Part shown: positions 506-19,467 of the stretch, one piece after another
Layout of the letters: each line of letters opens with the position of its first letter
Position numbering within the stretch: position 1 is the stretch's first letter
Source of the DNA: Candidatus Bathyarchaeia archaeon
GTDB lineage: Archaea; Thermoproteota; Bathyarchaeia; Bathyarchaeales; Bathycorpusculaceae
Direction of reading: 5' to 3'
Assembly: GCA_038883795.1 (NCBI GenBank)
Contig: JAVZLK010000017.1
Coordinates: forward strand, 1-19,467
Length of the DNA stretch: 19,467 nt
The notes under the pieces: model-generated
The model's input: only the letters and a program-made list of their open reading frames with translations
Databases searched by the model: none
What the model was told of the DNA's origin: nothing
Made by a program: the position numbers and the translations under genes

Positions 506-527
506 TGAATTTGAAGGCGTCTCAGCA

Positions 528-545
528 AATATAAATGTTTCTTTA
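528..545 (-). promoter_or_regulatory. rRNA operon promoter (BRE + TATA)
   Basis: Minus strand reads TAAAGAAACA-TTTATATT: a purine-rich BRE followed by TTTATA (535-530), about 25-30 nt upstream of the GC-rich leader. Confidence 0.75.
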
Positions 546-566
546 CCGCTTAATATGCATTGTTAT

Positions 567-1322: not shown

Positions 1323-1385
1323 CTTAACGCTCTCCTCAAAATCAAAAAGGGTTGTGGCTTTAAAAACAGTTTTTGCATCAAACAA

Positions 1386-2768: not shown

Positions 2769-2973
2769 AGATGAGCCTATCTCCTAAACTTTGTAAAGTG
2801 GGGCACTTCTCCTTTCTCTATCAGAAAGCAAGCCTTTTACAGAATAAAGCAACTATTCCCGCAGGGATAATATTCTCAAAGCAGAACCATAAACTGCAAA
2901 TACGTATCAGCTCTTAAAAATGCATAAATAGCCAGTTCAAAACAAAATTTTAAGAACCTTGAGGAACAGCCCA

Positions 2974-3792
2974 ATGGAAGACCTATCACGCTATTACACG
3001 TTGCTTAGGGACCCAGCCCGCAGAAAAATAATCGAAATCTTGGGCACACAAGAAAAGATTGGATTTAAGGAGTTGAGGGAAACTTTAGGCTTAGGCGTAG
3101 GCACAGTTTACTATCACCTAGACATGCTCTCAGACTTCATAACACAAGACAAACAACGCAAATATAGGCTGAACGACCGCGGACAAATGCTGTACAGAGT
3201 TTTAAAGGAAGGAACAGTTCCACCCGCAATGGAGCTTGGTGGCGTTTCGACTCATGGATTTGTTAGATGGATTTTCTTGTCTCCAATTTTCGCTAAAACA
3301 ACCAAGCCCTTAAAGTTCTTGCCACTTTCAACAATCATGCTTTTTGTTGGAGCGCTTGGTGCAGCTTATGTCAAGCTAACTCCAGCACTCTTTTTCTATT
3401 CGCCAATTTTCACATATAGTGAAACAGGCATTATCGTTCGGTACTTTTTAGGATGGATTGGGCTTTTCTTTTTTGGAGAAGCCTTGAGCTATGCCTTTTA
3501 TAAGCGTGTGGGGAATAGCCTTCAATTTTTGACATGTCTCGGCATAGCGTCTTTTCCGCTTATGATATATCCATATATTTATTGGATACTTCCCATGCTC
3601 TTTTCAAACTTTCAATTTTTAGATTTAACCATGCAAGCAATTCTTGTAGCGCTACAAATTTGGGGTATATTGCTAGTATCTTCTGCTATCTGTTTTGGAA
3701 AGGGACTGAGGCTTGATAAAGCAATTGTTATAAGCTTAACAGCCATGTACCTAAACATTACAATACTATACCTTATGGGATGGTTCACTTAA
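2974..3792 (+). CDS. membrane-anchored transcriptional regulator: ArsR-like wHTH plus about 5 TM helices
   Basis: N-terminal LRDPARRKIIEIL...FKELRETLGLGVGTVYYHLDML...YRLNDRG is a wHTH; the C-terminal half has about 5 hydrophobic helices. ATG at 2974 follows GAGG; TTG at 2959 is an alternative start. Confidence 0.8.
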   Translation: MEDLSRYYTLLRDPARRKIIEILGTQEKIGFKELRETLGLGVGTVYYHLDMLSDFITQDKQRKYRLNDRGQMLYRVLKEGTVPPAMELGGVSTHGFVRWIFLSPIFAKTTKPLKFLPLSTIMLFVGALGAAYVKLTPALFFYSPIFTYSETGIIVRYFLGWIGLFFFGEALSYAFYKRVGNSLQFLTCLGIASFPLMIYPYIYWILPMLFSNFQFLDLTMQAILVALQIWGILLVSSAICFGKGLRLDKAIVISLTAMYLNITILYLMGWFT

Positions 3793-3806
3793 GTTTCTAC
3801 ATAGAG

Positions 3807-3854
3807 TTCGGGACTTCTAGAACTTATAATAAGCAATATTCGAGTTTTTTCGAA
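3807..3854 (+). promoter_or_regulatory. putative promoter flanked by two TTCG-N8-(A/C)GAA boxes
   Basis: TTCG-GGACTTCT-AGAA (3807-3822) and TTCG-AGTTTTTT-CGAA (3839-3854) flank CTTATAAT (3823-3830). Confidence 0.45.
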
Positions 3855-3903
3855 GCGATTCTCTTAATAAGCCGTTTATTAAAGTTATTTTCGGTGAAAA
3901 ACC

Positions 3904-5226
3904 GTGAAAAACGCCGGAAAAATGTTGGTGACAAGTTTTCTAGCGATATTATTACTTGCCGTGACACCACCGCTGATTGCGGTAAATCCGGTGTCTGCAG
4001 AAGAAACCTCTGTGGCAGTTACGTTGCCTGGTGATGAAAACTGGTATTATATACAAAATGACGTTGTAACTATAGTTTTCCCAAGAAACGGCACCAAACC
4101 CATGTTCCTATGGTGGTACACAAACGATCCAAGCAATATTAGTGTAGTAAAATTCAAAGGGCTAATTGAATACTTCACCTACGAACAACCATACTTTCTA
4201 TGGAGATGCCAGGCAGAAGCATGGAGAATACGAGAACGTATAGAAGTGCATTATTATGGTCCGAAACAGCATATGCTCCAAGAGATGCTTAGACTTAGAG
4301 CCCTACAAATATTGGAACGAATTGGAAGCTATATAGGTCTTCATGCGCCCTACCTACCATTCAGCGGCTGCAAGTGGCGATTGGATGGACCTGAAAACGT
4401 GACTAAGGGCGATGTAAAATATTTAAGTTTCAATTTTACTTTAGAAGACGTCCCTGGATACAGACCTAACCTACAATTTGCAGAAAACAACATTATACTT
4501 CGATGCAGGTTCTACTACACGCCAGCAACAGAAGATGTCTATGGAAAATACAGTTACACAGTGGATGCTGGTGAACTCAAAATCGACATAATCATCAAAA
4601 AATGGGAGTGGAACATTGACAAACTTGAGCCAATAATAGATGAGCTCAGAGAGCTCGGTTTAGAAATACCAGAAGGCAAGGCTGGTCTCGCTTTATGGGT
4701 TAACTTGGCATCGATCAATTTAACGAAAATCCCAATCGCTGAAACCGATGCAAAAACCGCAGAAGATGTCGATTTAACCGAGGGAGCATCTACTGCTCAA
4801 AACATGTATGTTGAAGGCGCGAGAGTTTCGGTGGTTCAAAATAATAGTGGAAATGCTGATGAGATACCGCTGCAAAGCCGATGGAGGGAACGTTTCAAAA
4901 TACGCTTTGAAAGAGGCAATGCCACCTTTGCGGGCTTCTTCAAATTTGTCCCACAAGCCATAATCACAGATGGAGTCACATACAACACAACAGATGTAAC
5001 TGCAGCATACATTTCTGCTGGTGCACACATGCGATTATTCATCGGCTATCCATATTTTGGTAACGCTACTTTAGAGCATGACCCATCTCTTGGAGTGGAA
5101 AACATTGTTCCATGGATACCGATTCCACTCTTACTCGTCCTGATGGGTGCTACTGTCATAATTGCTGTTGCTGTGGCTGCTGTTAAGATGCACAAGAGAC
5201 CAATTAACATTGTGAATGTCCATTAG
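3904..5226 (+). CDS. putative cell-surface glycoprotein (signal peptide, C-terminal TM anchor), function unknown
   Basis: Basic then hydrophobic N-terminus ending in PVSA; nine N-X-S/T sequons; HDPSLGV followed by a TM helix and basic tail KMHKR. Confidence 0.8.
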   Translation: MKNAGKMLVTSFLAILLLAVTPPLIAVNPVSAEETSVAVTLPGDENWYYIQNDVVTIVFPRNGTKPMFLWWYTNDPSNISVVKFKGLIEYFTYEQPYFLWRCQAEAWRIRERIEVHYYGPKQHMLQEMLRLRALQILERIGSYIGLHAPYLPFSGCKWRLDGPENVTKGDVKYLSFNFTLEDVPGYRPNLQFAENNIILRCRFYYTPATEDVYGKYSYTVDAGELKIDIIIKKWEWNIDKLEPIIDELRELGLEIPEGKAGLALWVNLASINLTKIPIAETDAKTAEDVDLTEGASTAQNMYVEGARVSVVQNNSGNADEIPLQSRWRERFKIRFERGNATFAGFFKFVPQAIITDGVTYNTTDVTAAYISAGAHMRLFIGYPYFGNATLEHDPSLGVENIVPWIPIPLLLVLMGATVIIAVAVAAVKMHKRPINIVNVH

Positions 5227-5250
5227 TTTCCCCTTTTTCTTTTTTGTTTG
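5227..5250 (+). terminator. oligo-T archaeal terminator
   Basis: TTTCCCCTTTTTCTTTTTTGTTT directly after the stop codon. Confidence 0.65.
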
Positions 5251-5326
5251 CTGTTAGTGATGTATCGTTTTTGGGAATAAAAGCTTATATTGTATATTGC
5301 TATACACTATTTAGGCGGCTTTGAAA

Positions 5327-5446
5327 ATGGGCAAAACTTCAAAGACGGATGAAATCCGCTGGCAAGTAATAAAAGCCATGCTTGAAGAGTTTCCAACATT
5401 GAAGGAAAGAGTCAAGAACTATCTGAAAGAACAAAAACACAACTAA
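5327..5446 (+). CDS. small hypothetical protein, 39 aa (not in ORF track)
   Basis: MGKTSKTDEIRWQVIKAMLEEFPTLKERVKNYLKEQKHN*; AGGCGG RBS at 5313-5318; CTTATATT TATA-like element at 5284-5291 behind an A-rich BRE; fills an otherwise empty gap. Confidence 0.7.
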   Translation: MGKTSKTDEIRWQVIKAMLEEFPTLKERVKNYLKEQKHN

Positions 5447-5480
5447 GCTCACAAACGCTCATTTTATAACTGAAATTTGT

Positions 5481-5825
5481 TTAATTCCTCTTTAACAAGT
5501 GTGGTGGAGGAATCTTAACATCATTCTTATAATTCTCGCTTTCAGTTTTAAGAAGTTCTGTAATCTCCCGATACCGCGTTAGAAAGCTTAAGCCTTTGTC
5601 GGTTGCCTTATAAATTTCTTTATCGTTCTCCACAATTTTATCTAACAATTTTATTCTTAACATAAACCTAAGATAATCGTTCAACTGTGTGAAGCTTAAA
5701 TTTGCCCTATACATGATTTGGGTTTTCAAAGTTCCCTCCTTGGCTATTTCTAAAATTTCAGCAATAATGTAAAGCTTATCCCTCCTTTTGGAAGCGGGGT
5801 TCACGCCCCAATCATTCATTTCCAA
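5481..5825 (-). CDS. small archaeal winged-helix DNA-binding protein (HTH_45/ArnR1-like family)
   Basis: RRDKLYIIAEILEIAKEGTLKTQIMYRANLSFTQLNDYL...YKATDKG matches the R.R..II..IL...KT.IMY.ANLS...Y..T.KG pattern. Confidence 0.85.
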   Translation of the reverse strand: MEMNDWGVNPASKRRDKLYIIAEILEIAKEGTLKTQIMYRANLSFTQLNDYLRFMLRIKLLDKIVENDKEIYKATDKGLSFLTRYREITELLKTESENYKNDVKIPPPHLLKRN

Positions 5826-5996
5826 TATTCCTCTTTTAAAACAGTTTTCTATACAAAAAGTGGAAGTGGAGCGTTTTAAGGGGTGTTTCGCCCGCTTGAG
5901 TATTTCAAATATCGAAATATTCTCTAGAACAAACTTCTATAAGAAACACTTAACTTCTATGAAAGAGAAAATGTTAGAAAGGCATTGGTGAGAGAA

Positions 5997-6494
5997 ATGC
6001 TGGTTGGTTTAATGGCGGATACGCATGACAATTTGCCCATGGTTGATAAAGCCATAAAAAAGTTGAACGAGGAAAATGTTGAGCTTGTGCTTCATGCTGG
6101 AGATTATGTGGCGCCCTTCGTTATTCCAAAATTTAAAGGGTTAAAGGCAAAATTAATCGGCGTTTTCGGCAACAATGACGGAGACCGCGAACTCTTGAAG
6201 AAAAGATTCAGCGAACATGAAGGTTTAGAAATACGGGGAAACTTTGCCGAAATAAAGGTTGATGGCTTAAGAATAGCCTTATTACATGGAACGGATGAAG
6301 AACTTCTAAAGGCTTTAATTGAAAGCGAAACCTTCGATGCCGTAGTTCACGGGCATACACATAAAGCAGAAATTTATCGAAAGGGCAAAACATTAGTCGT
6401 AAATCCAGGCGAAGTTTGCGGATATTTAAGTGGCAAATCGACAATAGCCTTGTTAGAAACGGCTAAACGTGAAGCAAGGCTAGTGAATTTATGA
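5997..6494 (+). CDS. metallophosphoesterase, MJ0936/YfcE family
   Basis: DTHDN, HAGD, GNND, LLHG, HGHTH and NPGE motifs; ATG at 5997 follows GGTGA. Confidence 0.93.
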   Translation: MLVGLMADTHDNLPMVDKAIKKLNEENVELVLHAGDYVAPFVIPKFKGLKAKLIGVFGNNDGDRELLKKRFSEHEGLEIRGNFAEIKVDGLRIALLHGTDEELLKALIESETFDAVVHGHTHKAEIYRKGKTLVVNPGEVCGYLSGKSTIALLETAKREARLVNL

Positions 6495-6511
6495 AGTTTA
6501 TTTGCTAAAAT

Positions 6512-7078
6512 TTAACCCTTATTTTTAATGTGTGAAGTTTCTAGCACCTTTGGTTCTTTCCATTCTTCCCTTAAAATGCTATAAAGGTGACCGTCTGCCC
6601 ACTTTCCCTTCGCATCCCAAAGCGCCTTTCGCAATGCCCCCTCTTTTTTAAAGCCTACCTTCTCCAAAACTCTTCGGGAAGCTTTATCTTGCGTGTTGAT
6701 GACTGCTTGGATTCTAATGATTTCTCTTGTAAGAAATAGATAATCTACAAGCATTTGTACAGCTTCCGTTCCATAGCCTTTATTTCTTTCGCTTGGAATG
6801 ATTGCGTAGCCAATTTCTGTCCAGCCAAAATTTGGAGCGCTGATGTAGTGGCAAGTCCATCCGATTTTGGTTCCATCCTTTTTCTCTATTATGAAGTCTA
6901 TCCATTCTGTTTGGTAGAGCTTATGCTCCAATATTCGTTTTTCAAGTTCAGCTTTAGAAAGTTGGTCAGGAAAATGCTGATAGCCCCCTGCAAATTCAAC
7001 ATCGTTAAGCCACTCCACTAATAAAGGGACATCTTCCCTTTCAGCTAATCTGAGGTTGATTCTTTTTCCTTCAAGCAT
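6512..7078 (-). CDS. GNAT N-acetyltransferase, RimJ/RimL family
   Basis: MLEGKRINLR, EIGYAI, RNKGYGTEA, ASRRVLEKVGFKKEG, YSILREEW. Start placed at ATG 7078. Confidence 0.9.
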   Translation of the reverse strand: MLEGKRINLRLAEREDVPLLVEWLNDVEFAGGYQHFPDQLSKAELEKRILEHKLYQTEWIDFIIEKKDGTKIGWTCHYISAPNFGWTEIGYAIIPSERNKGYGTEAVQMLVDYLFLTREIIRIQAVINTQDKASRRVLEKVGFKKEGALRKALWDAKGKWADGHLYSILREEWKEPKVLETSHIKNKG

Positions 7079-7101
7079 AACAATAGAAGTATAATACAAG
7101 A

Positions 7102-8034
7102 TTATTTAATTTTGTTATATGGCTGCCTTTTCTGGTTTGCGAGTTCAAACAACCTTATTAACTCTTGGTCGCTTGCTCCATTCCGCATGGGCGTTAAAAC
7201 ATCGATTAAGTTGTCGTTTCTCATGAGGCATGTTTTGAGTTTTCCATTGCTTGTCACACGCAAGCGTGTGCAGTGCATGCAAAACTCTGTATTCTCTGTT
7301 GGATGTATAACCTCGACTTTCACGTTTGGCAAGTAGTATATGCGCCGATTTTGCATATAATGTCTAGTTTCAACTTTCACCGCTTTTTGCTCCAGCATGA
7401 CTTCATATTCAATTAAGGGTTTAAAGTTTGCACGATAGTATGCTTCACTTATGTTTAGTGGTTCAAGTTCTATTAACTGCAAAATTGCACCCGTTTCCCT
7501 TGCAAATTCAATCATTTCCAAAACTTCATTATCGTTTATGCCTTTCAAGACAAGCATGTTAAGCTTAACCGGGGAAAAGCCAACCTTAACAGCAGCTTCA
7601 ACACCTTCTAAAACATCTTTTAAATTGCCGCCAGTCAACTCGCCATAAACTTTAGCATTTAATGTTGGAAAGTTTACGTTTACACGCTTCAAACCATCGG
7701 CATATAACTCTTCAGCCAAGGCAGCAAGCCTTGTTCCATTAGTTGTCATTGAAAGGTCGGTTAAGCCAGATATTGCTGCTATTCCTTTGACAATTTCTGG
7801 AATATCCTTGCGCAAGAGGGGTTCTCCGCCCGTAAGTTTCACTTTGGACATGCCCAAGCTAACGGCTATTCTCACAATGCGCACAATTTCGTCAACTGTC
7901 ATTTCTTTTTCAAAATTTTCTCTTTGTTTTTCTTCGCCTTCCATGTGACAGTATTGGCAGTGCAAATTACAATTGTGTGTTACTGCTACTCGCAAGTTTA
8001 GAAGTGGACGGCCGAAACTGTCTATCAGCACCAT
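7102..8034 (-). CDS. moaA: GTP 3',8-cyclase (radical SAM)
   Basis: DSFGRP..NLRVAVT, CNLHCQYC, KLTGGEP, C-terminal cluster motif FCMHCTRLRVT...KTCL; adjacent to other moa genes. Confidence 0.96.
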   Translation of the reverse strand: MVLIDSFGRPLLNLRVAVTHNCNLHCQYCHMEGEEKQRENFEKEMTVDEIVRIVRIAVSLGMSKVKLTGGEPLLRKDIPEIVKGIAAISGLTDLSMTTNGTRLAALAEELYADGLKRVNVNFPTLNAKVYGELTGGNLKDVLEGVEAAVKVGFSPVKLNMLVLKGINDNEVLEMIEFARETGAILQLIELEPLNISEAYYRANFKPLIEYEVMLEQKAVKVETRHYMQNRRIYYLPNVKVEVIHPTENTEFCMHCTRLRVTSNGKLKTCLMRNDNLIDVLTPMRNGASDQELIRLFELANQKRQPYNKIK

Positions 8035-8036
8035 CG

Positions 8037-8570
8037 TTATTCCCGAGCATGCTTAACGATGTGAGATGCTTCGGGCAATATAAGCTTTTCAAAACAAAGC
8101 CTCACAGCATCAGGTGAACCAGGAATACAGAAGAAGACTTTACCCTTAGCTACACCAGCCAAAGCCCGAGACAAAACAGCAGCAGAACCAATCTCATCAT
8201 AACTTAAACGCCTAAAAATCTCACCAAATCCAGGCAAAACCTTCTCCAAAAACGGCGAAAGGGCTTCAATTGTTATATCCGATGGGGCTATGCCTGTACC
8301 ACCGCAAAATATAACGGCATCCAAATCAGCATCGGCTAAAGCTTGTTTTATGCCTTCTTCAATTAGGGCTTTATCGTCTGGAATAAGCCTTCGCAAAATC
8401 ACCCTGTGCCCAGCCTTTTTCAAAAACGCTTCAATCAAATCTCCAGAGATATCTGTCACCTTTTCGCCCCTTTTTAGTTGTTGATAGCGGGATGTGCTGC
8501 ACGTGAAAATGGCAAATTTCAATTTTCTAGGCGCTTCAGCCTTGTGTTTTTTTGCGCTTTTGCTCATCAC
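8037..8570 (-). CDS. moaB: molybdopterin adenylyltransferase, MoaB/MogA family
   Basis: DISG, IPDD, GGTGIAPSDITIEA, LPGFGEIFR, LSRALAG, PGSPDAV. Confidence 0.93.
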   Translation of the reverse strand: MMSKSAKKHKAEAPRKLKFAIFTCSTSRYQQLKRGEKVTDISGDLIEAFLKKAGHRVILRRLIPDDKALIEEGIKQALADADLDAVIFCGGTGIAPSDITIEALSPFLEKVLPGFGEIFRRLSYDEIGSAAVLSRALAGVAKGKVFFCIPGSPDAVRLCFEKLILPEASHIVKHARE

Positions 8571-8597
8571 TAACTCCTTCCTCGTTTTCTGACAATT

Positions 8598-8605
8598 TAT
8601 TTAAA
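8598..8605 (-). promoter_or_regulatory. putative TATA box for moaB-moaA
   Basis: TTTAAATA on the minus strand about 28 nt upstream of the moaB start. Confidence 0.5.
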
Positions 8606-8624
8606 GGGCTTATTGTTATTATTT

Positions 8625-9608
8625 TTAACTTCCAAGTAAAAATCGAATAATAAATGGGCGACTCCTCCACTTGGCTTTTAAAACTCTCAATCCATATGCT
8701 ACAGCTATCATGAAGAACGACATAACAATATAAATAAGCAAGAATGTTTGGAGATCCACCTCTAACCATATGCCTGCAATGATCCATCGAATTAAAAAGA
8801 GATGCAGTATATACATAAAAAGGGAAGACTCGCCCAGAACCTGAAGCGGCTTATATATGATAAGGGAAGGTTTGTAGTCCACTATAGAAAATAAGATAAG
8901 AATTACCCCAATGGCGCTAATTACAAATCCAATGGATGGCCAACTGTAATAGTAAAAAGTAAGCCACCATGTAATGCCACCCAAAGTTAAGATGGTGACG
9001 CCTATTAAGAAGGTGACATTTCTTTTCAGCATAATAGGCGATTTATATTTCCAGCGTAGATTAGCAAGGTTTACGCCTAGTAAAGAAAATCCTAACCATG
9101 GAAATATAGGAAACCAACCGTCAACAATCAAGCGGTGGACAACATAATCTGTGTACTTTAAAAATTCTTGAAGCAAAGGCGTAAACGAAAAAAGGGAAAT
9201 CACAGTAAGCCACTGGGAAAAAGCGTTTAAACGCGAGAAAAGATATGCTATGGGCAATGAGGTACCGATTAGATAAAGTATCTGAAAAAACATGAAGGGA
9301 TTACTTTTAAATATAATCACTTCAATAAGTGCTCCAACAATTATAAGTAAGATTCCGCGAGCCAAGAAGTATTTTAACTTGTGACCTTTCGTTTGAGTTG
9401 TAAAAGCAACCATCATCCCAGCGATTACAATAAATAATGGAGCAGCCCATGCATTATAAAGAACAAGCCAAAAAGGATAAGGTTCAACCGATAACACGGT
9501 AGGTAAATTACCGCAAACCATAAAAAGAACAGCCAATCCTCGCAAAATATCTATTGTTACATCTCTTTTATAATTTTGCAAAAATATGCGCCTTTTTCGA
9601 TTCATCAC
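8625..9608 (-). CDS. DUF1624 / heparan-alpha-glucosaminide N-acetyltransferase-like polytopic membrane protein
   Basis: RDVTIDILRGLAVLFM, APLF..IAG, FPIFPWLGF, LGESSLFMYILH; about 9-10 hydrophobic helices. Confidence 0.85.
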   Translation of the reverse strand: MMNRKRRIFLQNYKRDVTIDILRGLAVLFMVCGNLPTVLSVEPYPFWLVLYNAWAAPLFIVIAGMMVAFTTQTKGHKLKYFLARGILLIIVGALIEVIIFKSNPFMFFQILYLIGTSLPIAYLFSRLNAFSQWLTVISLFSFTPLLQEFLKYTDYVVHRLIVDGWFPIFPWLGFSLLGVNLANLRWKYKSPIMLKRNVTFLIGVTILTLGGITWWLTFYYYSWPSIGFVISAIGVILILFSIVDYKPSLIIYKPLQVLGESSLFMYILHLFLIRWIIAGIWLEVDLQTFLLIYIVMSFFMIAVAYGLRVLKAKWRSRPFIIRFLLGS

Positions 9609-9646
9609 TTCTTTCTAGAGTGCATACTGTAAGTAGTAACTGACCA

Positions 9647-10090
9647 TCACAGAACCTTATTTTTCATCTTTCTCAATACACGAATGTCCTCAATAACTGT
9701 TGACGGATATTGTCCCAACTCATCTTTCTCATACTGCTTCACCATATCCCAAATTGTTAAGAGACTAACGGCAGTAGCCACCAAGGCTTCCATTTCAACC
9801 CCTGTCTGTGCTTTCGTTTTAACTGTGGAGACAACGCGCACTTTTGAATTTTTCAAAATCTCTATTTCAACTTCCACATTGGTTAGTGGTAGCGGATGGC
9901 ATAGGGGGATTAGGCCGCTCGTCTTTTTTGCAGCCAAAATCCCAGCAATTTTAGCCGTGTATAAAGGGTCTCCCTTCGCTATTTTACCCTCCTTAATTAG
10001 GCGTATAGTTTCAGTTTTTAGCTTGATTGTGCCTGTGGCGGTTGCTTCACGAAAGACTTCCGGTTTAGTGGAAACATCAATCATCGCCAT
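9647..10090 (-). CDS. moaC: cyclic pyranopterin monophosphate synthase
   Basis: MIDVSTK, AGILAAKKTSGLIPLCHP, TGVEMEAL, TIWDMVK. Confidence 0.97.
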   Translation of the reverse strand: MAMIDVSTKPEVFREATATGTIKLKTETIRLIKEGKIAKGDPLYTAKIAGILAAKKTSGLIPLCHPLPLTNVEVEIEILKNSKVRVVSTVKTKAQTGVEMEALVATAVSLLTIWDMVKQYEKDELGQYPSTVIEDIRVLRKMKNKVL

Positions 10091-10099
10091 ATTTTCGCC

Positions 10100-10792
10100 T
10101 CACGTTTCTTCAGTTTTAAAGTTTGAGAGGGAAAGCTGCCTCTTTTCCGTTATGTTTTCTACCGTGGCTGGTTGCTGAGGAGCTTTCCCAGAAAGAATCT
10201 TTAGGCTTTCTTCTTGAAGTTCTCGCAGAATCTGGCGCATCTCATCAACCTTCTTTTCCAAACCAATTAAAGCGGCTCGAAAATCATCTACGCGTCCTAA
10301 AACATATTTGATGAGGGGTTCAATATCCTCCTTTGCTTTTATGCTTATAACTGAGCTTTTGGCTTCGGAAGCCCTCTTGAAATTTATTATCGCATCTATA
10401 AGCGGGGAAGGATTATCCCTAACTTCTCGCATGAGAAAAAGGAAATCCGAACCATCAGTTAGGGCTCTTCTTAAATGCTCAAAGGCTAAGCGAGAATTTG
10501 CCATGGGGTCTGGCGTGTTTTGGAGGAGAATATCCTTGTATGTTGTTAGGGCTTGGGTTAGGTTTTTACTTTTAGATTTTATGGTGTAAGCCCTTTCTGG
10601 TTTGAGAATGAGCATAAGCGCTTCGCTGTTTGCCACCAAATCCTTTAAGCGGTTAATATAGTTTTCAGTTTTTCCTAGCAATTCTGATGGCGCAAGTTTT
10701 TCGGAAAGAATGCCGCTGGCTATGTCGCTTGCAATCTTCTGCAAAATTCCTTCAAACTCACCTATTTTCCCGCCAAACTCTTCTTTAATCAC
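10100..10792 (-). CDS. hypothetical alpha-helical/coiled-coil protein with C-terminal PIP-box-like motif
   Basis: 230-aa ORF tightly packed in the operon; heptad pattern at about aa 160-200; C-terminus KRQLSLSNFKTEET. Confidence 0.8.
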   Translation of the reverse strand: MIKEEFGGKIGEFEGILQKIASDIASGILSEKLAPSELLGKTENYINRLKDLVANSEALMLILKPERAYTIKSKSKNLTQALTTYKDILLQNTPDPMANSRLAFEHLRRALTDGSDFLFLMREVRDNPSPLIDAIINFKRASEAKSSVISIKAKEDIEPLIKYVLGRVDDFRAALIGLEKKVDEMRQILRELQEESLKILSGKAPQQPATVENITEKRQLSLSNFKTEET

Positions 10793-10823
10793 CTTTCACA
10801 CCACTTAGAAAATAGTTAAGGGC

Positions 10824-11096
10824 TTATGGTTTATTTGTGTGTTCCCAGATATCCAAGAGGTTTTGAATTGCTTTAGCCTTAGGCGAGTTTTCATTAACCC
10901 TATAAAGGCGGATTCTTCCAAAAATTTTGTGACGAACAATACCTTCTTCCTCTAAAATCTTTAGATGCTTAATTGTAGCGTTGTAGTTCACATTTAATCG
11001 GCGGGCAATTTCAGAAACATTAAGCTCGCCCATCTGCACTAAAATTTTCAAAATTTTCATTCTAAGCCTTGAAGAGAAAAAATTCTCCACATTCAT
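10824..11096 (-). CDS. ArsR-like winged-helix protein
   Basis: FSSRLRMKILKIL...ELNVSEIARRLNVNYNATIKHLKILEEEGIV...GRIRLY; 6 nt downstream of cdc6. Confidence 0.88.
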   Translation of the reverse strand: MNVENFFSSRLRMKILKILVQMGELNVSEIARRLNVNYNATIKHLKILEEEGIVRHKIFGRIRLYRVNENSPKAKAIQNLLDIWEHTNKP

Positions 11097-11102
11097 AACC
11101 TT

Positions 11103-12293
11103 TCACGCTTCTTTTCCTTCTAAGAGAAAACTTAATTCTTTTTCCATTTCATGAGCTGGGATTCGTGGCAAATAAATAATTGTAGACCGTCCACGCGAAC
11201 CTGCAGCAGAAACTTCTGTGGTTACTATGCCTAAAGCAGAGAGGAGTTGCAGATACTTCCATAACTGTGTGTGGCTATGTGGCGGTTCACGAAATTCTTC
11301 GCAAACAATTTTGTAGGCTTTTTCTGCTTCTCCCAGCGAAACAAAAGCCCTTTCGCTTTCTTTCAAAAGTCTCGCTATGCCAAGCAAGAAAAGTTTTTCA
11401 TGAAAACCTAAAGGAGCCAAATCGCTTTTGCGCATGGTTGGAATTATGCTTGAAACAGCCTTTCGAATGCATTCCGGCGTAACTTCGCCTAAATCTTCAG
11501 CATCAGCATATTTTCCAGCCCTCCAAAGCAGTTCAATGGCGAAACGGGCGTTTCCACCCTCTGAATAGGCAAGTTCAGCTATCAAATCTACAGAATCTTC
11601 GCTTACCATTAATGGCTTAAAGGCTAGGGAAATACGGTCATTAAGAATGTCTATTAACTGGGACTTGGAGTATTTTTCAAGCCGAATTAGGTTAGACTGC
11701 AAAGTGCTTCTGGTGCTGGCATCTAAACGTTCAATTACGCCTAAGTTTCTCAAAATGCATATTAGCGAAAGCCTCTGGGGCTTATTTTGCCTAATTTCTT
11801 GTAACCGCGTAAGCTTGTAAACAGCTTCGGAACCTTCCCTTTCAACTAAACTCTCAAACTCATCGAGGGTTAAAATTACATAAGCATTTTCATCATCCAA
11901 AACTTGCAAGAAAATGCGGAGAAGCTCCTCTGCCGAGTAGCCGCGCCTTGGAAAGTTTGGATGAAAAGAGGAAATTGCATGATGAAGGATTAGAAGGAGG
12001 TTTCCCCGATATTCACGACAATTAACATGCACGTAACGTAGGTTTATCCCACGTTCCTTCGCTTCTCTGGTTATATCGGCTCCGAAACGTTGGGAAAGAA
12101 CCGTTTTGCCAGTGCCAATATCGCCGGCTATCATGACTCTTTGAGCCATACTCCATGGAGACTGCCATATAAAACTGAAAAACTCCTTGAGTAGGCGGAG
12201 TTCTTTATCTCTGTGTGGAAGCCTATAAGGAACATAGTTTATGTCAAGCTTTGTCTCGTCTCTGAATACGCTGCGGCGATACGACACTAACAA
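11103..12293 (-). CDS. cdc6: ORC1-type DNA replication protein Cdc6/Orc1
   Basis: YVPYRLPHRD, Walker A GDIGTGKT, VHVNC, Walker B LTLDEFE, sensor II GNARFAIELL, C-terminal winged helix HTQLWKYLQLL...GSRGRST. GTG at 12287 is an alternative start. Confidence 0.96.
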   Translation of the reverse strand: MLVSYRRSVFRDETKLDINYVPYRLPHRDKELRLLKEFFSFIWQSPWSMAQRVMIAGDIGTGKTVLSQRFGADITREAKERGINLRYVHVNCREYRGNLLLILHHAISSFHPNFPRRGYSAEELLRIFLQVLDDENAYVILTLDEFESLVEREGSEAVYKLTRLQEIRQNKPQRLSLICILRNLGVIERLDASTRSTLQSNLIRLEKYSKSQLIDILNDRISLAFKPLMVSEDSVDLIAELAYSEGGNARFAIELLWRAGKYADAEDLGEVTPECIRKAVSSIIPTMRKSDLAPLGFHEKLFLLGIARLLKESERAFVSLGEAEKAYKIVCEEFREPPHSHTQLWKYLQLLSALGIVTTEVSAAGSRGRSTIIYLPRIPAHEMEKELSFLLEGKEA

Positions 12294-12405
12294 GACCTCA
12301 AAACTAATTATGCATAAAGCTTTGTTATTCTTTTCCCCAGATTCGCATAAAATCTAACAAAAAACTAATAAACGCATTTTATTAATTCTATTGCGAAAAA
12401 GCAAA

Positions 12406-12960
12406 ATGATTCCCAAATATTTGTTTTTAACAAAAGGCGTCGGCAAACACAAGGAGCAACTGCAATCCTTCGAATTAGCCCTAAGAAATGCAGGAATACA
12501 GCATTGCAACATAGTAAACGTTTCAAGCATAATACCGCCAGGCTGCAAACTCATCAGCAGGGAAAGAGGCCTAAAAATGCTGAAACCAGGCGAAATAACA
12601 TTTGTTGTCATAGCTAGAAACTCAACTAATGAGCCGCATAGGCTTATTGCCGCTTCTATAGGAGTAGCCATCCCCTCGGGCAAAAGCCAATATGGATATC
12701 TCTCTGAACACCACTCTTTTGGACAAACGGATGAGGCAGCTGGAGATTACGCGGAGGATTTGGCTGCAACCATGTTGGCTACAACCATGGGAATACCCTT
12801 TGACCCGCAAACCGCTTGGGATGAGAGAAAACAGCTTTTCAAAACCACAGGACTAATAATTAAGACCACCAACGTAACGCAGTCGGCAACTGGCGACAAA
12901 AATGGTTTATGGACAACGGTTATTGCGGCGGCGGTCTTTGTTCCAGAAAAAAGACGTTAA
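12406..12960 (+). CDS. pdaD: pyruvoyl-dependent arginine decarboxylase
   Basis: [35 protein letters not shown] self-cleavage site, [11 protein letters not shown] at 12406 lies about 21 nt downstream of TTTATTAA (probably leaderless). Confidence 0.93.
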
Positions 12961-13041
12961 CGCGCTTAGCAGCTTAATTACAATAAGTATCCAATTTTTT
13001 ATTCTAAAACAATATTAAGAGTTAACGTTAACGCTAGATAG

Positions 13042-13737
<696 letters not shown>

Positions 13738-13750
13738 GAGCGAAACGGCA

Positions 13751-14632
13751 TTGAAGGTTGAAGCCGAATGCGCCGCATGCGTAATCAGCAGAGCAGCAGC
13801 GGAAGCCATGGAAGCCACAACAAACCCTGCCCTACGCTTTAGAGCAATGGCAGAAGTAATTAGATTTCTAAACAAGGAGTTCAAACCAAACGCCGTTCCA
13901 GCAGACCTCGGTACAAAAAGGGACCGCATTATAAAATGGGTTTCTGGAAACGAAGACCCATACGAGAGAAATAAACGGATAAGCAACGAAAAAGCCCTAA
14001 AAATTCTGCCTTTCGCCAAAAAAATTGTAGAAGAAGGCTATGCACAGGAAGATAGATTTAAGAGGGCAGTTTTATGCAGCATCGTCGGCAATGTTATTGA
14101 ATTTGACATTCCCGGCCACAAGTTCACTTTTGGTAGCATCAGAAAGCTTTTCAGAAATGCTGCTAAAGATTTAGCCATTGATGATACGGGTAAAATTTAT
14201 GAATTGGCAAAAAAGGCCACAAAAATCCTTTACTTGACAGACAATGCAGGCGAAATTGTCTTTGACACATTGCTTGTTGAACAGTTGAAGAACATGGGCG
14301 TTAACGTGATCGTGGCTGTTAAAGATAAACCAGTAATTAATGATGCAACATTGGAGGATGCAGAAGTTTCTGGAATGAAAAAAATTGCTGACAAAGTAAT
14401 TACTACAGGAACAGACGCGGTGGGCTTAGCCATAAACGAAGTCTCGAAAGAATTTCTGGAAGCCTACAATAGTGTGGATTTAGTTTTCGCCAAGGGCATG
14501 GGATATGCCGAAACATTAACAGAATATAAGCTAAAAAAGCCCCACGCATTATTTTTCAGAACCAAATGTAACCCAGTTGCAAACTTTTTTGCAGTAGCAA
14601 GGGAGAAAAACGTTGCAAAATTGATGATGTAA
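13751..14632 (+). CDS. DUF89/ARMT1-like damage-control metabolite phosphatase
   Basis: N-terminal CxxC (ECAAC), DPY..K, GNVIEF, DNAGEIVFD, INDAT, KGMG, C-terminal KC. Start placed at TTG 13751 after AGGAG. Confidence 0.9.
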   Translation: MKVEAECAACVISRAAAEAMEATTNPALRFRAMAEVIRFLNKEFKPNAVPADLGTKRDRIIKWVSGNEDPYERNKRISNEKALKILPFAKKIVEEGYAQEDRFKRAVLCSIVGNVIEFDIPGHKFTFGSIRKLFRNAAKDLAIDDTGKIYELAKKATKILYLTDNAGEIVFDTLLVEQLKNMGVNVIVAVKDKPVINDATLEDAEVSGMKKIADKVITTGTDAVGLAINEVSKEFLEAYNSVDLVFAKGMGYAETLTEYKLKKPHALFFRTKCNPVANFFAVAREKNVAKLMM

Positions 14633-16717
14633 ATGAAGCTGCCATCGATAAGCCTAAACAGCGAAAAACTTTCGCGTTTTGAAGAGGCAATAAAGCAAGA
14701 ATGGATTATAACAAATGGTTTAGGCGGATATGCTTCTTCCACGGTTTTGGGCATAAACACGAGAAAATATCACGGGTTGCTCGTAGCTGCTTTTAGTCCG
14801 CCGGGAGACCGCAGAGTGTGCCTAGAAAAACTGGATGAGGAATTAACCATTGGAAACAGCATTTATCCATTGGGCGCCAACGAGTTTAAGAACGGAATTT
14901 TTCCGAAAGGATATTTGTTCTTGAAGGAGTTTTCTGTTTTGCCATTCCCAAAATATGTTTATGCTGTGCAAAATGTTGAAATTCAAAAAGCAATTTTTAT
15001 GCCATATAAGAAAAATGCAGTTTTAATACTTTATAAAATTTTGAATGGAAGTGGTTCAAACGTTAAAATTAGGGTTTTTCCGCTTGTAAACTTTAGGCAC
15101 ATGCACGCTGTGACGGATAGATGGAAAATTTTTGGAAAATTCACCCAGAAACAAGAAGGCAAAGAAGTGGAACTATGCTTCAGCAATTCCCAGTCTGTGC
15201 TTATGATGAAAACAACAAGCGGTCATTATTGTGCCGATGAAAAGTGGATTGAAAAAATCTTTTACCGTGAAGAAGCACTTCGAGGAGAAACATGCATAGA
15301 CGACTGTTTTCAACCGGGATATGTGGAAGTGGAGACAAAGGCTGGTGCAAGTGGGAAGTTTGCAATAATTTTTGTTGCAAGCGAAAACGAAACTGAGGTT
15401 AAAAAGTGCGTTGATGAGATGCCATGTTCAGTATATGATGCAGAAGCCCTATGTGAAAGAGAAATGGAGCGCCGCGAAAATTTTCTGGCAAAATTTTACG
15501 AAGAACACGTAGGAATTCATGAAAATGAATGGTTGAATTGGGTTCTTTTGGCAACAGACGCTTTCATAGTTAAAGGAATAAGCGAATCGGAGAGAGCTGT
15601 TATTGCGGGTTACCACTGGTTTGAAGCTTGGGGAAGAGACACTTTCATTGCCATGCCGGGCTTGATGCTCGTGACTGGAAGGTTTGAGGATGCAAGGAAA
15701 ACTTTCACAACTTTCCAAAAATATTGTAAAGATGGTTTAATCCCAAACTTTTTGCCAGAATATTCAAAAGAACCCGCCTATAATACGGTTGATGCAACTT
15801 TATGGTTTGTTAACGCTGTACTACAATATTTGAAGTACACAAGCGATTTCAAATTCGTTCAAGAACAGTTGTGGAACACCTTAAAATTAATCATGGAAAA
15901 CCACATCAAGGGAACAGTTTTGGGCATACGCTTAGATGCTGACGGATTGCTCTTTCATAATCCACAATTGACATGGATGGACGCTGTTGTGGATGGTCAA
16001 CCAGTAACCCCAAGAGGCGGAAAAGCCGTTGAAGTTCAAGCCTTATGGTATAATGCGCTGAGGGTTATGGAAATTTTGGCAAACAAGTTTAAAGAAAAGG
16101 GTGAAGCGGAAAAATACGCAAATATTGCTGAGAAAGCGAAAAAAAGTTTTGTTGAAAAGTTTTGGAATGCCGAAAAGAACTGCTTGTTCGATGTTGTAGG
16201 CGAGAATGGGAAGGATGCCTCTTTAAGGCCTAATCAAATAATTGCTGTAGCCCTAGACTTTACAATGCTTGACAAAGCAAAAAGCGAGAAAATAGTGGAT
16301 GTTGTGCAACGGGAACTTTTAACGCCCTATGGCTTAAGAACCCTGGCAAGAAATGACCCAAAATATGTGGGAGTTTACAGTGGCGACAGAAGAAGCAGAG
16401 ACGAAGCCTATCACAACGGTACTGTTTGGCCTTGGCTATTGGGTCCATTCACAAAAGCCTATTTGAAAGCAAAGGGTTACGGAGATTTTGGGCGAGAATA
16501 CGCCTTAAAGAATTTCCTCTTACCCTTATTTACTCATCAGCCTTTTATGGCTGGACTTGGCGCAATAAGCGAAATTTTTGACGGAGAACCGCCTCACACG
16601 CCGAGGGGGTGCATAGCCCAAGCGTGGAGCATAGCAGAACCATTAAGAGCTTACATAGAAGATATAATGCAAATCAGACCAAAATATGAAATGGAAATCT
16701 TGCAAATGTCAAGTTAA
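14633..16717 (+). CDS. glycogen debranching enzyme / amylo-alpha-1,6-glucosidase (archaeal type)
   Basis: EWIITNGLGGYAS, TRKYHGLL, IAGYHWFEAWGRDTFI, NTVDATLWF, LTWMDA, RPNQ, YHNGTVWPWL, SEIFDG, AQAWS. Confidence 0.95.
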   Translation: MKLPSISLNSEKLSRFEEAIKQEWIITNGLGGYASSTVLGINTRKYHGLLVAAFSPPGDRRVCLEKLDEELTIGNSIYPLGANEFKNGIFPKGYLFLKEFSVLPFPKYVYAVQNVEIQKAIFMPYKKNAVLILYKILNGSGSNVKIRVFPLVNFRHMHAVTDRWKIFGKFTQKQEGKEVELCFSNSQSVLMMKTTSGHYCADEKWIEKIFYREEALRGETCIDDCFQPGYVEVETKAGASGKFAIIFVASENETEVKKCVDEMPCSVYDAEALCEREMERRENFLAKFYEEHVGIHENEWLNWVLLATDAFIVKGISESERAVIAGYHWFEAWGRDTFIAMPGLMLVTGRFEDARKTFTTFQKYCKDGLIPNFLPEYSKEPAYNTVDATLWFVNAVLQYLKYTSDFKFVQEQLWNTLKLIMENHIKGTVLGIRLDADGLLFHNPQLTWMDAVVDGQPVTPRGGKAVEVQALWYNALRVMEILANKFKEKGEAEKYANIAEKAKKSFVEKFWNAEKNCLFDVVGENGKDASLRPNQIIAVALDFTMLDKAKSEKIVDVVQRELLTPYGLRTLARNDPKYVGVYSGDRRSRDEAYHNGTVWPWLLGPFTKAYLKAKGYGDFGREYALKNFLLPLFTHQPFMAGLGAISEIFDGEPPHTPRGCIAQAWSIAEPLRAYIEDIMQIRPKYEMEILQMSS

Positions 16718-17746
16718 AATTGTTTTTCTTAGGCTTTCTGCTGCAACTTCTGGCGTGACGGTGTTTATGTAGACTCCTGTGCTTTTCTCGAATCCAGCCC
16801 AAATAGCCAATTGCGGATAAACTTCTAAATGCCAATGATAATGCTGTTTTGCGTTTTTGTTTATTGCCAAATGAAAACCATAATTGTATGGCGGGTCATT
16901 AACTAAATATTTCAGCCCTTTAAGGCATGTTTTTAATGTTTCAGCAAAAATTTCCACCTCATTTTTTGACATTTCAAGCAGTGTGGCTTCATGTTTTTTT
17001 GGAAATATCCAAAGCTCCATTGGGTTTATACTTGCATATGGAGTGAAAACCAAAAAGTTGGCGTTTTCAAGAACAAGCCGCGGTCCATCCCTTTCCTTTT
17101 CTATGATATTGCAGAATACGCATTTTCCGTTTTGCTTCCAGAATTTTTTGCTTTCTCTCATTTCATCAGCAACAATTTTTGGAATAAAAGGTGTAGCAAT
17201 TATTTGGCTGTGGGCATGAGAAAGCGAAGCTCCAGCTTCTAAGCCGTGGTTTCTGAATATGGAAACATATTTCACGTAGGGTTTTGTTGAAAACTCGCGA
17301 AGTCTGTCAATGTAACCGTTAATGACATGTATTAGTTGTGAAGTTTCTGCGTCTGATGGATGTTCATCATGGTTTGGAGATTCAACCAAAACTTCATGAT
17401 GCCCCACAGCCACACCCAAATCCGGAGTTTTCAAAAACTGTTTTAGGCTTGTCCCTTCTTTTGGCGGGGTAAAGGCTGGATAAAGGTTTGGAACGCATCG
17501 AATAAGCCAATTTTTATGGCGAAAACCATTCTCATCCTTAACTTTTTTTATGCCCTTGCCAGATTTTAGGTAGACAAGAACGGCTGGAGGAGTCATGTTT
17601 TCGTTACCTGGACACATTGGGCAAACTCCAGCCTTAGCCTTCTGTCTCTCTTTTTTGGCGAAGTCTGTGGGGCGGCGACCACGTTCTGTGGCGATGACAA
17701 CCCAGCGGTCAAGCAAATAATCCTTACGAACTTCGTTATGAGTCAT
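16709..17746 (-). CDS. galT: galactose-1-phosphate uridylyltransferase family protein
   Basis: WVVIATERGRRP, CPMCPGNE, PNLYPA, GHHEVLVE, FRNHG..AGASLSHAHSQ, CVFC, HWHLE, AGFE. Confidence 0.9.
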   Translation of the reverse strand: MTHNEVRKDYLLDRWVVIATERGRRPTDFAKKERQKAKAGVCPMCPGNENMTPPAVLVYLKSGKGIKKVKDENGFRHKNWLIRCVPNLYPAFTPPKEGTSLKQFLKTPDLGVAVGHHEVLVESPNHDEHPSDAETSQLIHVINGYIDRLREFSTKPYVKYVSIFRNHGLEAGASLSHAHSQIIATPFIPKIVADEMRESKKFWKQNGKCVFCNIIEKERDGPRLVLENANFLVFTPYASINPMELWIFPKKHEATLLEMSKNEVEIFAETLKTCLKGLKYLVNDPPYNYGFHLAINKNAKQHYHWHLEVYPQLAIWAGFEKSTGVYINTVTPEVAAESLRKTILT

Positions 17747-17836
17747 GTCGAATTCCAGCAGTGTTAGGTTATGGTTCTAAAATGGATTTAGCATTTTCCA
17801 AAGTTCTCCGTTTTGTGCATACTTTTGGCGCAAAAA

Positions 17837-19366
17837 TCAACCAATAGGGACCCTACCCTCTATTATTTTCTTGTACGCTTTTGCGCTTTTTCGCATCTTT
17901 CGCTTTTTAGTTTTTAGGTCAACAGAAAACAAGCCGAACTTCATTTTGAAACCTTTAGCCCACTCATAATTGTCAGTTAAAGACCAGTGGAAATAGCCCC
18001 GAACATCAATTTTCTCATCCAGCGCCCTTTCAAGCATTTTTAAGTGGTCAGAAATGAATTTTGGTCGGAGCTCGTCTTTTTCGTCCGCTATTCCCTTCTC
18101 CGTCACATAAAGCGGGCACCCATATTTTTGCATCATTTTTAACGCTTCAAGCATGCCCTCTGGAAAGACTTCCCATCCAAGGTCTGATGTGGGCATACCG
18201 TCGGCTGATTTGCTGTTTGGTTGACATGCAAAACCATAATTCTGTGCTATGTCTGGAATGGCTGGAATTCCAGCGAAAACCTTTGCTAAAAGCGATTTTC
18301 TTCCCTTAATGACAAATCTTGTGTAATAGTTTATGCCAAGCCAGTCAAGACGCTGCCCCAAATAATTTTTAATTTCTCTCTTTTCTTTTATTCCATTGAA
18401 GTTTTCATCCAGCCAACCATGGGCAACGGCTTGGGGAAAGAAGTGATTATGCAGGTTATTCATAAATTTAGCCGCCTTCACATGAAGCGCATCTTTTTCA
18501 TCGAAAGGTTTTGCTGGTATCACGTTATGTATCAAACCCACATTCGCTGGGCTTGGGCTATCCCCGTCCGCTTTAACAGTATCAACCTTTTTTATGATAT
18601 CGTAGGCTCTGGCATAAGCAACAACCATGTTTTTAGCAGCCTTTTTGACAGCTTTGAAACTGCGTGTTCCAGGCGGAAAACCAGACTCTGGAATCATATA
18701 GCCAGCTTCGCACACAGCCATAGGCTCGTTGAAGATTGCCCAATTGTCCACAATGTCACCTAAATTCCATGCCACGTAAGCTGCATATTTGGCAAACTCG
18801 ATTATGTTTGGTTTGTCAAGCCATCCCCTTGCGCCCTTTTTTAGCTTGGTGTTGCGAACGGTTATAGGGTCATGAATCCACAAGGGAAGCGTAAAATGGT
18901 TTAAGCAAACAAAAACCTCGAAGCCTTTCTCCCTCAAGTCGCTTATCATAGCCCTATAATGGTTTAACGCTTCCTTATTCGACAACTTTTCAAGCTCTTC
19001 CAATGCCTTAGCATCAACATCCACCCTAGAAAAATTGCCATCAGAAGCATACTCAACGCCAACCTCAATCGCTTTTGTACTCTTTGGAAAGATTCTACTC
19101 CACTCAATCCCAACTCTATAAGCATTCAACCCTAGGCTCTTGGCTAACTCATGATCCTTCTCGTACAAGCTCCAGTAATCTACTCCATTTTCTGGCAAGT
19201 CACCGCTTACCAAGCCTTTCTCTATGTTTTGGGCATCATGCACCCAAACATACCAATCCGTATTAGGGTCTATATTTTTCCCAGCAGCATCCCCCATCTC
19301 AAATTGGAAACCGCTAATGGATACGCCCCAAAGAAACCTTTCTGGAAAGCCCATATCAATCCACAT
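17837..19366 (-). CDS. glycoside hydrolase family 1 beta-glycosidase/beta-galactosidase (archaeal type)
   Basis: FPERFLWGVSISGFQFEMG, RVGIEWSRIFP, LNHFTLPLWIHDP, NEP acid/base, GINYY, TEKG at the nucleophile position, WSLTDNYEWAKGF. ATG at 19354 is an alternative start. Confidence 0.95.
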   Translation of the reverse strand: MWIDMGFPERFLWGVSISGFQFEMGDAAGKNIDPNTDWYVWVHDAQNIEKGLVSGDLPENGVDYWSLYEKDHELAKSLGLNAYRVGIEWSRIFPKSTKAIEVGVEYASDGNFSRVDVDAKALEELEKLSNKEALNHYRAMISDLREKGFEVFVCLNHFTLPLWIHDPITVRNTKLKKGARGWLDKPNIIEFAKYAAYVAWNLGDIVDNWAIFNEPMAVCEAGYMIPESGFPPGTRSFKAVKKAAKNMVVAYARAYDIIKKVDTVKADGDSPSPANVGLIHNVIPAKPFDEKDALHVKAAKFMNNLHNHFFPQAVAHGWLDENFNGIKEKREIKNYLGQRLDWLGINYYTRFVIKGRKSLLAKVFAGIPAIPDIAQNYGFACQPNSKSADGMPTSDLGWEVFPEGMLEALKMMQKYGCPLYVTEKGIADEKDELRPKFISDHLKMLERALDEKIDVRGYFHWSLTDNYEWAKGFKMKFGLFSVDLKTKKRKMRKSAKAYKKIIEGRVPIG

Positions 19367-19386
19367 TGTTATAGATGGTTATACCA

Positions 19387-19394
19387 TATTTAAA
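19387..19394 (-). promoter_or_regulatory. TATA box for the GH1(-galT) transcript
   Basis: TTTAAATA on the minus strand ending 21 nt upstream of ATG 19366, consistent with a leaderless or short-leader mRNA. Confidence 0.6.
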
Positions 19395-19395
19395 A

Positions 19396-19467
19396 GGCGG
19401 TGGGTCACTGAGGTTCGACATCCAGAATCCGCCCAACCCCTCAAACCTACACTCGTACCCGCACCCC
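19396..19467 (-). ncRNA. probable 3' end of SRP (7S) RNA, truncated by window edge
   Basis: GC-rich non-coding segment reading GGGGTGCGGGTACGAG...ATGTCGAACCTCAGTGACCCACCGCC followed by TTTT. Resembles, from memory, the 3' strand of helix 5 and the terminal helices of archaeal SRP RNA. The diagnostic helix 8 is outside the window. Confidence 0.55.

Follow-up and report, generated by a model that had tools for sequence, protein, structure and literature searches.

Orc1-2 is, to our knowledge, the one master regulator of the DNA-damage response known in archaea, and it has been studied only in the Sulfolobales. In Saccharolobus/Sulfolobus islandicus it is described as a global regulator of this response that binds ANTTTC elements, according to Sun et al. 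2018 (PMC6061795). The evolutionary setting is given by Raymann et al. 2014 (PMC3914693), who distinguish two ancient clusters, Orc1-1 and Orc1-2, infer that the Thermoproteales have lost Orc1-1, and state that Orc1-2 genes do not coincide with origins in Sulfolobus or Haloferax. Here we analyzed a stretch of 19,467 nucleotides (nt) from a Candidatus Bathyarchaeia archaeon (contig JAVZLK010000017.1 of assembly GCA_038883795.1, positions 1 to 19,467), referred to as the window. In it, an orc1/cdc6 gene is followed by a small winged helix-turn-helix gene (wHTH) and by the gene of a helical protein of 230 amino acids (aa), here called P230. A first-pass annotation, made by a model from the letters of the sequence, had proposed these three genes as a module for the control of replication or DNA damage.

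The Cdc6-wHTH pair stands as the conserved core of this proposed module, whereas P230 proved optional, being found in 19 of 41 relatives and, among 301 genomes of the class, in 44 (three by weak partial matches). Our preferred reading of the row is an Orc1-2-type paralog with an old wHTH partner, to which P230 is joined as a likely clamp-bound accessory factor made with the pair; we see the chances for and against it as evenly balanced. Families (f) and loci (L) are given below by our own numbers where they have to be told apart.

The Cdc6 paralog and its winged-helix partner

The product of the first gene exceeds the cut-offs of TIGR02928 (258.2 bits, cut-off 181.3) and of NCBIfam NF001623 (333.5 bits, cut-off 311), and it scores 66.8 bits with Pfam Cdc6_lid and 60.2 bits with Cdc6_C. 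Walker A (GDIGTGKT), Walker B (LDEFE) and sensor 2 (GNAR) are all intact. Pyrobaculum Cdc6 (1FNN) is its best match in the PDB, with 187.4 bits over residues 11-391, while S. solfataricus Orc1-1 gives 117.2 bits and A. pernix ORC2 94.9 bits. Moreover, we placed it in a quick maximum-likelihood tree of 58 sequences from this analysis, which includes no named reference sequences and whose careful search is unfinished. In this tree an Orc1-1 clade of 11 rows (approximate likelihood ratio test, aLRT, 100) stands apart from a phylum-spanning clade of 34 rows (aLRT 90) that contains the window's copy. The type that the first-pass annotation had assigned by eye, and for which it had suggested a phylogeny as the check, is upheld as a non-Orc1-1 type by both the PDB match and the tree. 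1FNN would itself be of the Orc1-2 type, because Pyrobaculum belongs to the Thermoproteales, which lost Orc1-1. Upstream of cdc6 there is just a 97-nt spacer with one imperfect 21-nt inverted repeat and no origin-like features. We read the window's Cdc6, from its sequence relationships, as an Orc1-2-type paralog and not an origin initiator, and by analogy with Saccharolobus Orc1-2 its role would be regulatory rather than origin-firing.

The small second gene encodes a winged-helix protein with the Pfam domain HTH_5 (ArsR; 40.1 bits, cut-off 22), which scores 51.2 bits with NCBIfam HTH_metalloreg, slightly below the cut-off of 55; its PDB matches are generic and belong to the ArsR family only. 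With a hidden Markov model built from 21 sequences of the window's class, we found that in 13 of the 20 families sampled outside the class the best Cdc6 match is followed directly by wHTH. Within the tree, it follows Cdc6 in 27 of the 34 rows of the window's clade versus none of the 11 Orc1-1-clade genes. All three genomes examined from f24 carry Cdc6 and wHTH with overlapping ends and have neither P230 nor moa genes nearby. wHTH is an old, conserved downstream partner gene of Orc1-2-type cdc6, and the pair is conserved phylum-wide: the Cdc6-wHTH linkage seen in the single sequence of the window recurs well beyond it, with wHTH behind none of the 11 Orc1-1-clade genes. Since wHTH follows Orc1-2-type genes in 13 of 20 outside families, the gene order suggests that in most Thermoproteota the Orc1-2 regulator works with a second DNA-binding protein.

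Both small genes are real genes and are under purifying selection, with a ratio of nonsynonymous to synonymous substitution rates (dN/dS) of 0.09-0.15 for P230 and 0.07-0.17 for wHTH. Two other roles for wHTH were rejected. First, the protein has no cysteine among its 90 residues, so the usual thiolate metal sites are missing and it is not a thiolate metal sensor of the ArsR kind. Second, it is not a regulator of the moa genes, because it stays beside Cdc6 in loci where these are gone (L095-L097, L106-L108, L110).

The genome of the window (81 contigs, 87% complete) also holds a second full-length Orc1/Cdc6 on contig C1 (L001), which gives 377 bits to S. solfataricus Orc1-1 and 371 bits to A. 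pernix ORC1. This Orc1-1 gene adjoins an open reading frame (ORF) resembling the PolD small subunit (named by eye) and a 750-nt spacer (L001:2635-3388) with an inverted 19-nt pair, 516 nt apart. The spacer is, judging from these features, a likely candidate for the chromosomal origin, and a small wHTH-like ORF borders it on the far side. Two more partial Orc1/Cdc6-like matches were found at C40:6-653 and C59:5111-5933 (TIGR02928, 148 and 140 bits), one lying at the end of its contig and the other being split across two frames. These may be extra or mobile-element copies. In family f10 there are two non-Orc1-1 Cdc6 genes per genome (L036, L058 versus L156, L157): one is accompanied by wHTH, and the other is fast-evolving and stands directly before P230 without wHTH.

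P230 and its PIP-like tail

No Pfam or NCBIfam family matched P230, and Pfam scans of single members (E <= 1) gave inconsistent, scattered coiled-coil noise only. We modeled the protein with AlphaFold2 from a 16-row alignment (mean predicted local distance difference test, pLDDT, 83.8). The model has helices at residues 2-26, 35-63, 65-90, 96-126, 130-143 and 158-200, arranged as a four-helix bundle (~1-126), a short helix and a long helix (158-200), followed by a disordered tail (204-230). Foldseek found nothing in the PDB at E <= 0.001 (best E-value 0.054), and the wide fold search VIA returned only generic up-down four-helix bundles (FAT, PsbQ, designed proteins), the top Z of 12.8 being inside the range quoted for helical models. 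In the ESM Atlas only its own cluster was found, named 'hypothetical protein'. The first-pass annotation could not assign this protein to a family, and Foldseek, VIA and profile scans give none either.

A profile search of 1.84 billion representative proteins yielded 92 matches at E <= 0.001, none of which is fused to a known domain. Apart from a handful of weak matches to larger proteins (319-1790 aa), the matching proteins are at most 268 aa long, and many are fragments. In the phylum sample, 21 of 301 genomes have P230, comprising 12 in the class, two solid ones in f68 and seven weak partial matches on the long helix. P230 is a small orphan family, lineage-restricted and patchy. With a length of 275-279 aa, a longer coiled-coil end and no PIP-like tail, the f68 proteins (L168:3845-4684, L169:3845-4672), from another class, are the only solid relatives found outside the class; their genes again stand behind Cdc6-wHTH, facing RFC-S.

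The C-terminus of P230 reads ...KRQLSLSNFKTEET, in which the motif K-Q-L-S-L-S-N-F-K stands behind a variable linker. It has the pattern of a PCNA-interacting protein (PIP) box, with Q in first place, an aliphatic residue in fourth and an aromatic one in seventh. Q219 and F225 are invariant in all 15 aligned sequences of the window's subclade; at position 222, 14 of them have L or M and one has P. The Q-x-S-L-x-x-F tail is restricted to this subclade; in f5 the same motif is at the very C-terminus (KQSSLSEF, KQSALPEF).

We further co-folded the genome's own PCNA (L101:1501-2256; 17-row alignment) with P230 residues 186-230 (15-row alignment) in three runs, with three controls. The pair scored 0.79 and the controls 0.44, 0.00 and 0.00; in calibration, 116 of 157 solved complexes but 2 of 215 mismatched pairs came up to the mark used. 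Contact agreement of the runs was at least 60% and partner pLDDT at least 47. The predicted contacts join P230 residues 217-228 to PCNA residues 40, 43-47, 124-128, 200, 226-227, 243 and 245-249, which we take to be the interdomain loop, the hydrophobic pocket and the C-terminal tail, that is, the classical PIP site. P230 residues 217-228 are predicted, from this complex model, to dock in the PIP pocket of PCNA. The PIP-like motif noticed earlier in the window is thus given a predicted seat on the clamp, with a score well above that of the best control, and its scope is now clearer: it is conserved in the window's subclade but missing from most branches of the P230 family.

Gene order and rival explanations

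The three minus-strand ORFs of 396, 90 and 230 aa are confirmed as first drawn, with 6 nt between cdc6 and wHTH and 31 nt between wHTH and P230 in the ORF list, and another 9 nt separate P230 from moaC (Table 1). Shine-Dalgarno-like strings (GGTG, AAGGT, GAGG) precede the internal genes, and a TATA-like box is found before cdc6 only. Because of the gaps of 6, 31 and 9 nt, these strings and the single TATA-like box, the cdc6-wHTH-P230 row appears to be co-transcribed. The TATA-like element TTTATGCATAAT is at 12307-12318 in the cdc6-pdaD spacer, ~14-25 nt upstream of the first start codon; an alternative cdc6 start may be the GTG two codons further in. A block GAAAAGAATAACAA..TTTA..CATAAT is kept in the spacer of the window and of five own-family loci (L019, L021, L022, L024, L025) and is looser or absent in the remaining loci shown. 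The spacer is probably a promoter, as judged from these elements.

We classified the context of 55 P230 loci and added the two f68 loci; 16 families have P230. Cdc6 is upstream of P230 on the same strand in 25 of 57 loci and in 11 of 16 families, including the second class (f68). In 21 loci (19 and the two of f68) wHTH lies between them, and one more is interrupted by a run of N; counted by family, the cdc6-wHTH-P230 trio occurs in 9 of 16. MoaC and/or MoaB are encoded within 900 nt downstream of P230 on the same strand in 36 of 55 loci (10 of 16 families), the distance being -13 to 64 nt where moaC is next, and the RFC large subunit gene lies tail-to-tail with P230 within 300 nt in 13 of 55 loci. 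The first-pass annotation had named tracking with moa genes as something that would refute its module, and this turned out to hold by half, P230 being beside moaC/B in 10 and beside Cdc6 in 11 of the 16 families.

The same neighbours occur where P230 does not. Of the 20 families outside the class (L106-L125), 6 have moa genes no more than 2 kb from the Cdc6 ortholog, 10 have RFC within this flank (convergent and downstream in 8), and in 5 (L109, L111, L116, L117, L118) moaC comes after cdc6-wHTH without P230. The simplest reading of the order around the Orc1-2-type gene in L106-L125, and also in L026, L028, L031, L035, L036 and L072, would be one old order, cdc6 - wHTH - (moaC-moaB-moaA) facing rfcL - rfcS. 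P230 would then have been inserted between wHTH and moaC, and lineages would later have retained different neighbours. Inherited gene order is the simplest account of its position beside moaCBA or, in other lineages, beside RFC. As moaC follows cdc6-wHTH without P230, the moa linkage is either older than P230 or does not depend on it, and we count moaC as part of the ancestral order.

Another explanation of these counts is that P230 belongs with molybdenum-cofactor (Moco) synthesis, perhaps by assisting or regulating MoaC/MoaB, and that its place behind cdc6-wHTH is accidental. This would account for the closeness of moaC/moaB in most P230 loci and for f5 and f11, where P230 heads the row P230-moaC-moaB. 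We nevertheless hold it to be improbable: moaC follows cdc6-wHTH without P230 in five of five same-family genomes as well as in the five outside families, P230 persists without moa genes in f15, f18, f24, f33 and f68, its PIP-like tail docks on PCNA in silico, and neither profile nor fold searches link P230 to any Moco protein.

For P230 as a clamp-bound factor of the Cdc6-wHTH pair, several points weigh on the other side. First, the tail has no second aromatic residue at position 8, where the sequences carry K or R (residue 226) or have already ended. Of 54 loci listed, 38 do not have the motif (absent, or a chance match within the last helix); the families without it are f11, f24, f15, f19, f33, f10, f4, f8 and f68, and even trio-bearing loci lack it, namely L027 (f8), L070 (f33), L072 (f19), L084 (f15) and both f68 loci. 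Second, the partner pLDDT was below 50 in one co-fold run, and since PIP-PCNA complexes, a textbook interface, are well represented among solved structures, passing the co-fold shows likeness and not binding. Third, P230 is dispensable: in the class sample it was found in only 4 of the 48 further genomes of its family, and five of five same-family genomes without P230 keep cdc6-wHTH-moaC-moaB. In f5 and f11 (16 loci) it is the first gene of its row with no Cdc6 nearby, and in f24 it faces RFC without Cdc6 or moa beside it, the Cdc6-wHTH pair being elsewhere. Because its neighbours (Cdc6-wHTH, moaCB, RFC) form one ancestral order that is also found without P230, the context cannot show a functional link. 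Fourth, no Sulfolobus-type ANTTTC is present in the window's cdc6 promoter, and no conserved ANTTTC was found upstream of P230 in the lineages where P230 has its own promoter.

Much the same would be seen if P230 were an unrelated lineage-specific structural or coiled-coil protein, with a PIP-like tail that has no clamp function and with neighbours that reflect inherited order. The protein is patchy, dispensable and generic in fold, most branches do not have the motif, short strings of the PIP kind turn up often, and the co-fold may have passed through likeness to solved complexes. However, Q219 and F225 would then hardly be invariant in 15 of 15 sequences behind a variable linker, nor would the motif be expected at the very C-terminus in f5, and the controls reached just 0.44, 0.00 and 0.00. 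We regard this explanation as unlikely.

Our preferred reading, an Orc1-2-type paralog with its wHTH partner and P230 as a clamp-bound accessory factor, would work as follows. The Orc1-2-type ATPase and wHTH would act as a regulatory DNA-binding pair, and in the window's subclade Cdc6, wHTH and P230 would be made from one transcript. The P230 tail is predicted to sit on PCNA and would present the four-helix bundle and the long helix there, and the three genes would share a pathway. The row would in this way probably link a regulator of damage or replication to the fork. The full model of the first-pass annotation goes further and takes the three proteins as one physical module, in which P230 tethers Orc1-2/wHTH to loaded PCNA for replication- or damage-coupled control of the ATPase. 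The tight row, the recurrence of the trio in 9 of 16 P230 families including another class, and the predicted PCNA docking are in keeping with it, but the Cdc6-wHTH pair is widespread without P230, P230 is found without the pair nearby in f5, f11 and f24, and the trio-bearing families f8, f15, f19, f33 and f68 have no tail motif. It is, in our judgement, quite unlikely. The boldest form, a clamp-coupled checkpoint in which P230 would park the regulator on loaded PCNA while fork state or damage would set the ATPase activity, seems to us improbable.

Some further observations concern the regulatory motifs and the neighbouring genes. An ATTTTC at -21 of the window's P230 was considered as a DNA-damage-responsive element (DDRE) and rejected, as it is not kept in relatives. 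In L095, L096, L097, L072 and L084 (f24, f19, f15) the Cdc6 ortholog has a conserved CACTTTCA-type block ~45 nt before its TATA box, with exact CACTTTCAC in three of these five loci (L095, L096, L072). The block fits the Orc1-2 element ANTTTC and is not present in the window's family; it hints, as a lead only, at possible autoregulation of the Orc1-2-type gene in f24, f19 and f15. After moaC the row continues, by Pfam, with a membrane acyltransferase, moaB and moaA; the divergent genes upstream of the row are pdaD, a TIM gene and an ARMT1-like gene. The acyltransferase (327 aa, HGSNAT_cat and Acyl_transf_3, 8625-9608, minus strand) separates moaC from moaB in the window; these two adjoin in nearly all other loci showing both, and L071 (f36) has MoaB and no MoaC match. 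Near-identical DNA to window positions 9647-12400 occurs in hot-spring metagenome runs of several studies, with many strain variants. Two runs labelled metatranscriptomic and one DNA run yielded just short contigs of mixed strains, which are uninformative about transcripts.

Table 1. Positions of the row and of its adjoining features in the window
Feature	Position	Strand	Basis
Orc1-2-type Orc1/Cdc6 paralog (as read here), 396 aa	11103..12293	-	Pfam Cdc6_lid + Cdc6_C + AAA_22
Small ArsR-fold winged-helix protein (wHTH), 90 aa	10824..11096	-	Pfam HTH_5
P230, orphan helical protein, 230 aa	10100..10792	-	No Pfam/NCBIfam family
PIP-like box Q219-L-S-L222-S-N-F225 in the disordered tail of P230	10118..10138	-	Tail conservation and predicted complex
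Divergent spacer common to cdc6 and pdaD	12294..12390	.	Sequence, TATA-like element
moaC, next gene of the row	9647..10090	-	Pfam MoaC, E 1.5e-50

Comparison with known systems

Like S. islandicus Orc1-2, the window's Cdc6 falls outside the Orc1-1 clade and appears to have no origin beside it, and both have AAA+ and C-terminal winged-helix domains. A gene of the same Cdc6 type in the phylum sample (L123) adjoins moaC and RFC, in agreement with the order rfcS-rfcL-moaC-cdc6-2 in S. solfataricus; a literature search by S. solfataricus locus tag gave nothing. Unlike S. islandicus Orc1-2, the window's Cdc6 is followed by wHTH and P230, whereas L123, the Sulfolobales-matching locus of the sample, shows no partner gene and no wHTH. 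The window's promoter also differs in having no ANTTTC.

Pyrobaculum aerophilum Cdc6 (1FNN) is the best solved relative, and the single-Cdc6 family f48 (L124) also carries wHTH. As the sole paralog type, P. aerophilum Cdc6 probably serves as origin initiator; the window's genome, in contrast, has a separate Orc1-1. The wHTH protein shares the HTH_5 domain with ArsR/SmtB regulators, but it has no cysteine and is defined by its fixed place behind Orc1-2-type genes. We found no paper on a winged-helix partner of Orc1-2 in our literature search; a preprint on chromosome conformation capture (3C) in Thermofilum mentions ArsR and Cdc6, but in an unrelated way.

Archaeal proteins with a C-terminal PIP box include FEN1, the RFC large subunit and PolB, with the consensus Q-x-x-L-x-x-F. 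The Q-x-x-L-x-x-F of P230 likewise ends a disordered tail, with contacts predicted on the PIP site; unlike these proteins, P230 has no second aromatic residue and is a family-less four-helix bundle with no enzyme fold. It is a candidate new PCNA client in Bathyarchaeia, for which we know of no genetic system. Orc1-2 and PIP clients are known kinds, and within the limits of our literature search the wHTH partner found across the phylum and the P230 family seem not to have been described before.

In E. coli, the clamp-bound factor Hda controls the initiator AAA+ protein together with the beta clamp in the regulatory inactivation of DnaA (RIDA), and Hda is itself AAA+. The likeness of P230 to Hda is a functional analogy only and belongs to the boldest reading, as P230 is not AAA+ and has no sequence or fold relation to it. 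If true, the checkpoint would give archaea, with unrelated components, an equivalent of Hda-RIDA in bacteria and of the PCNA-dependent control of Cdt1 in eukaryotes.

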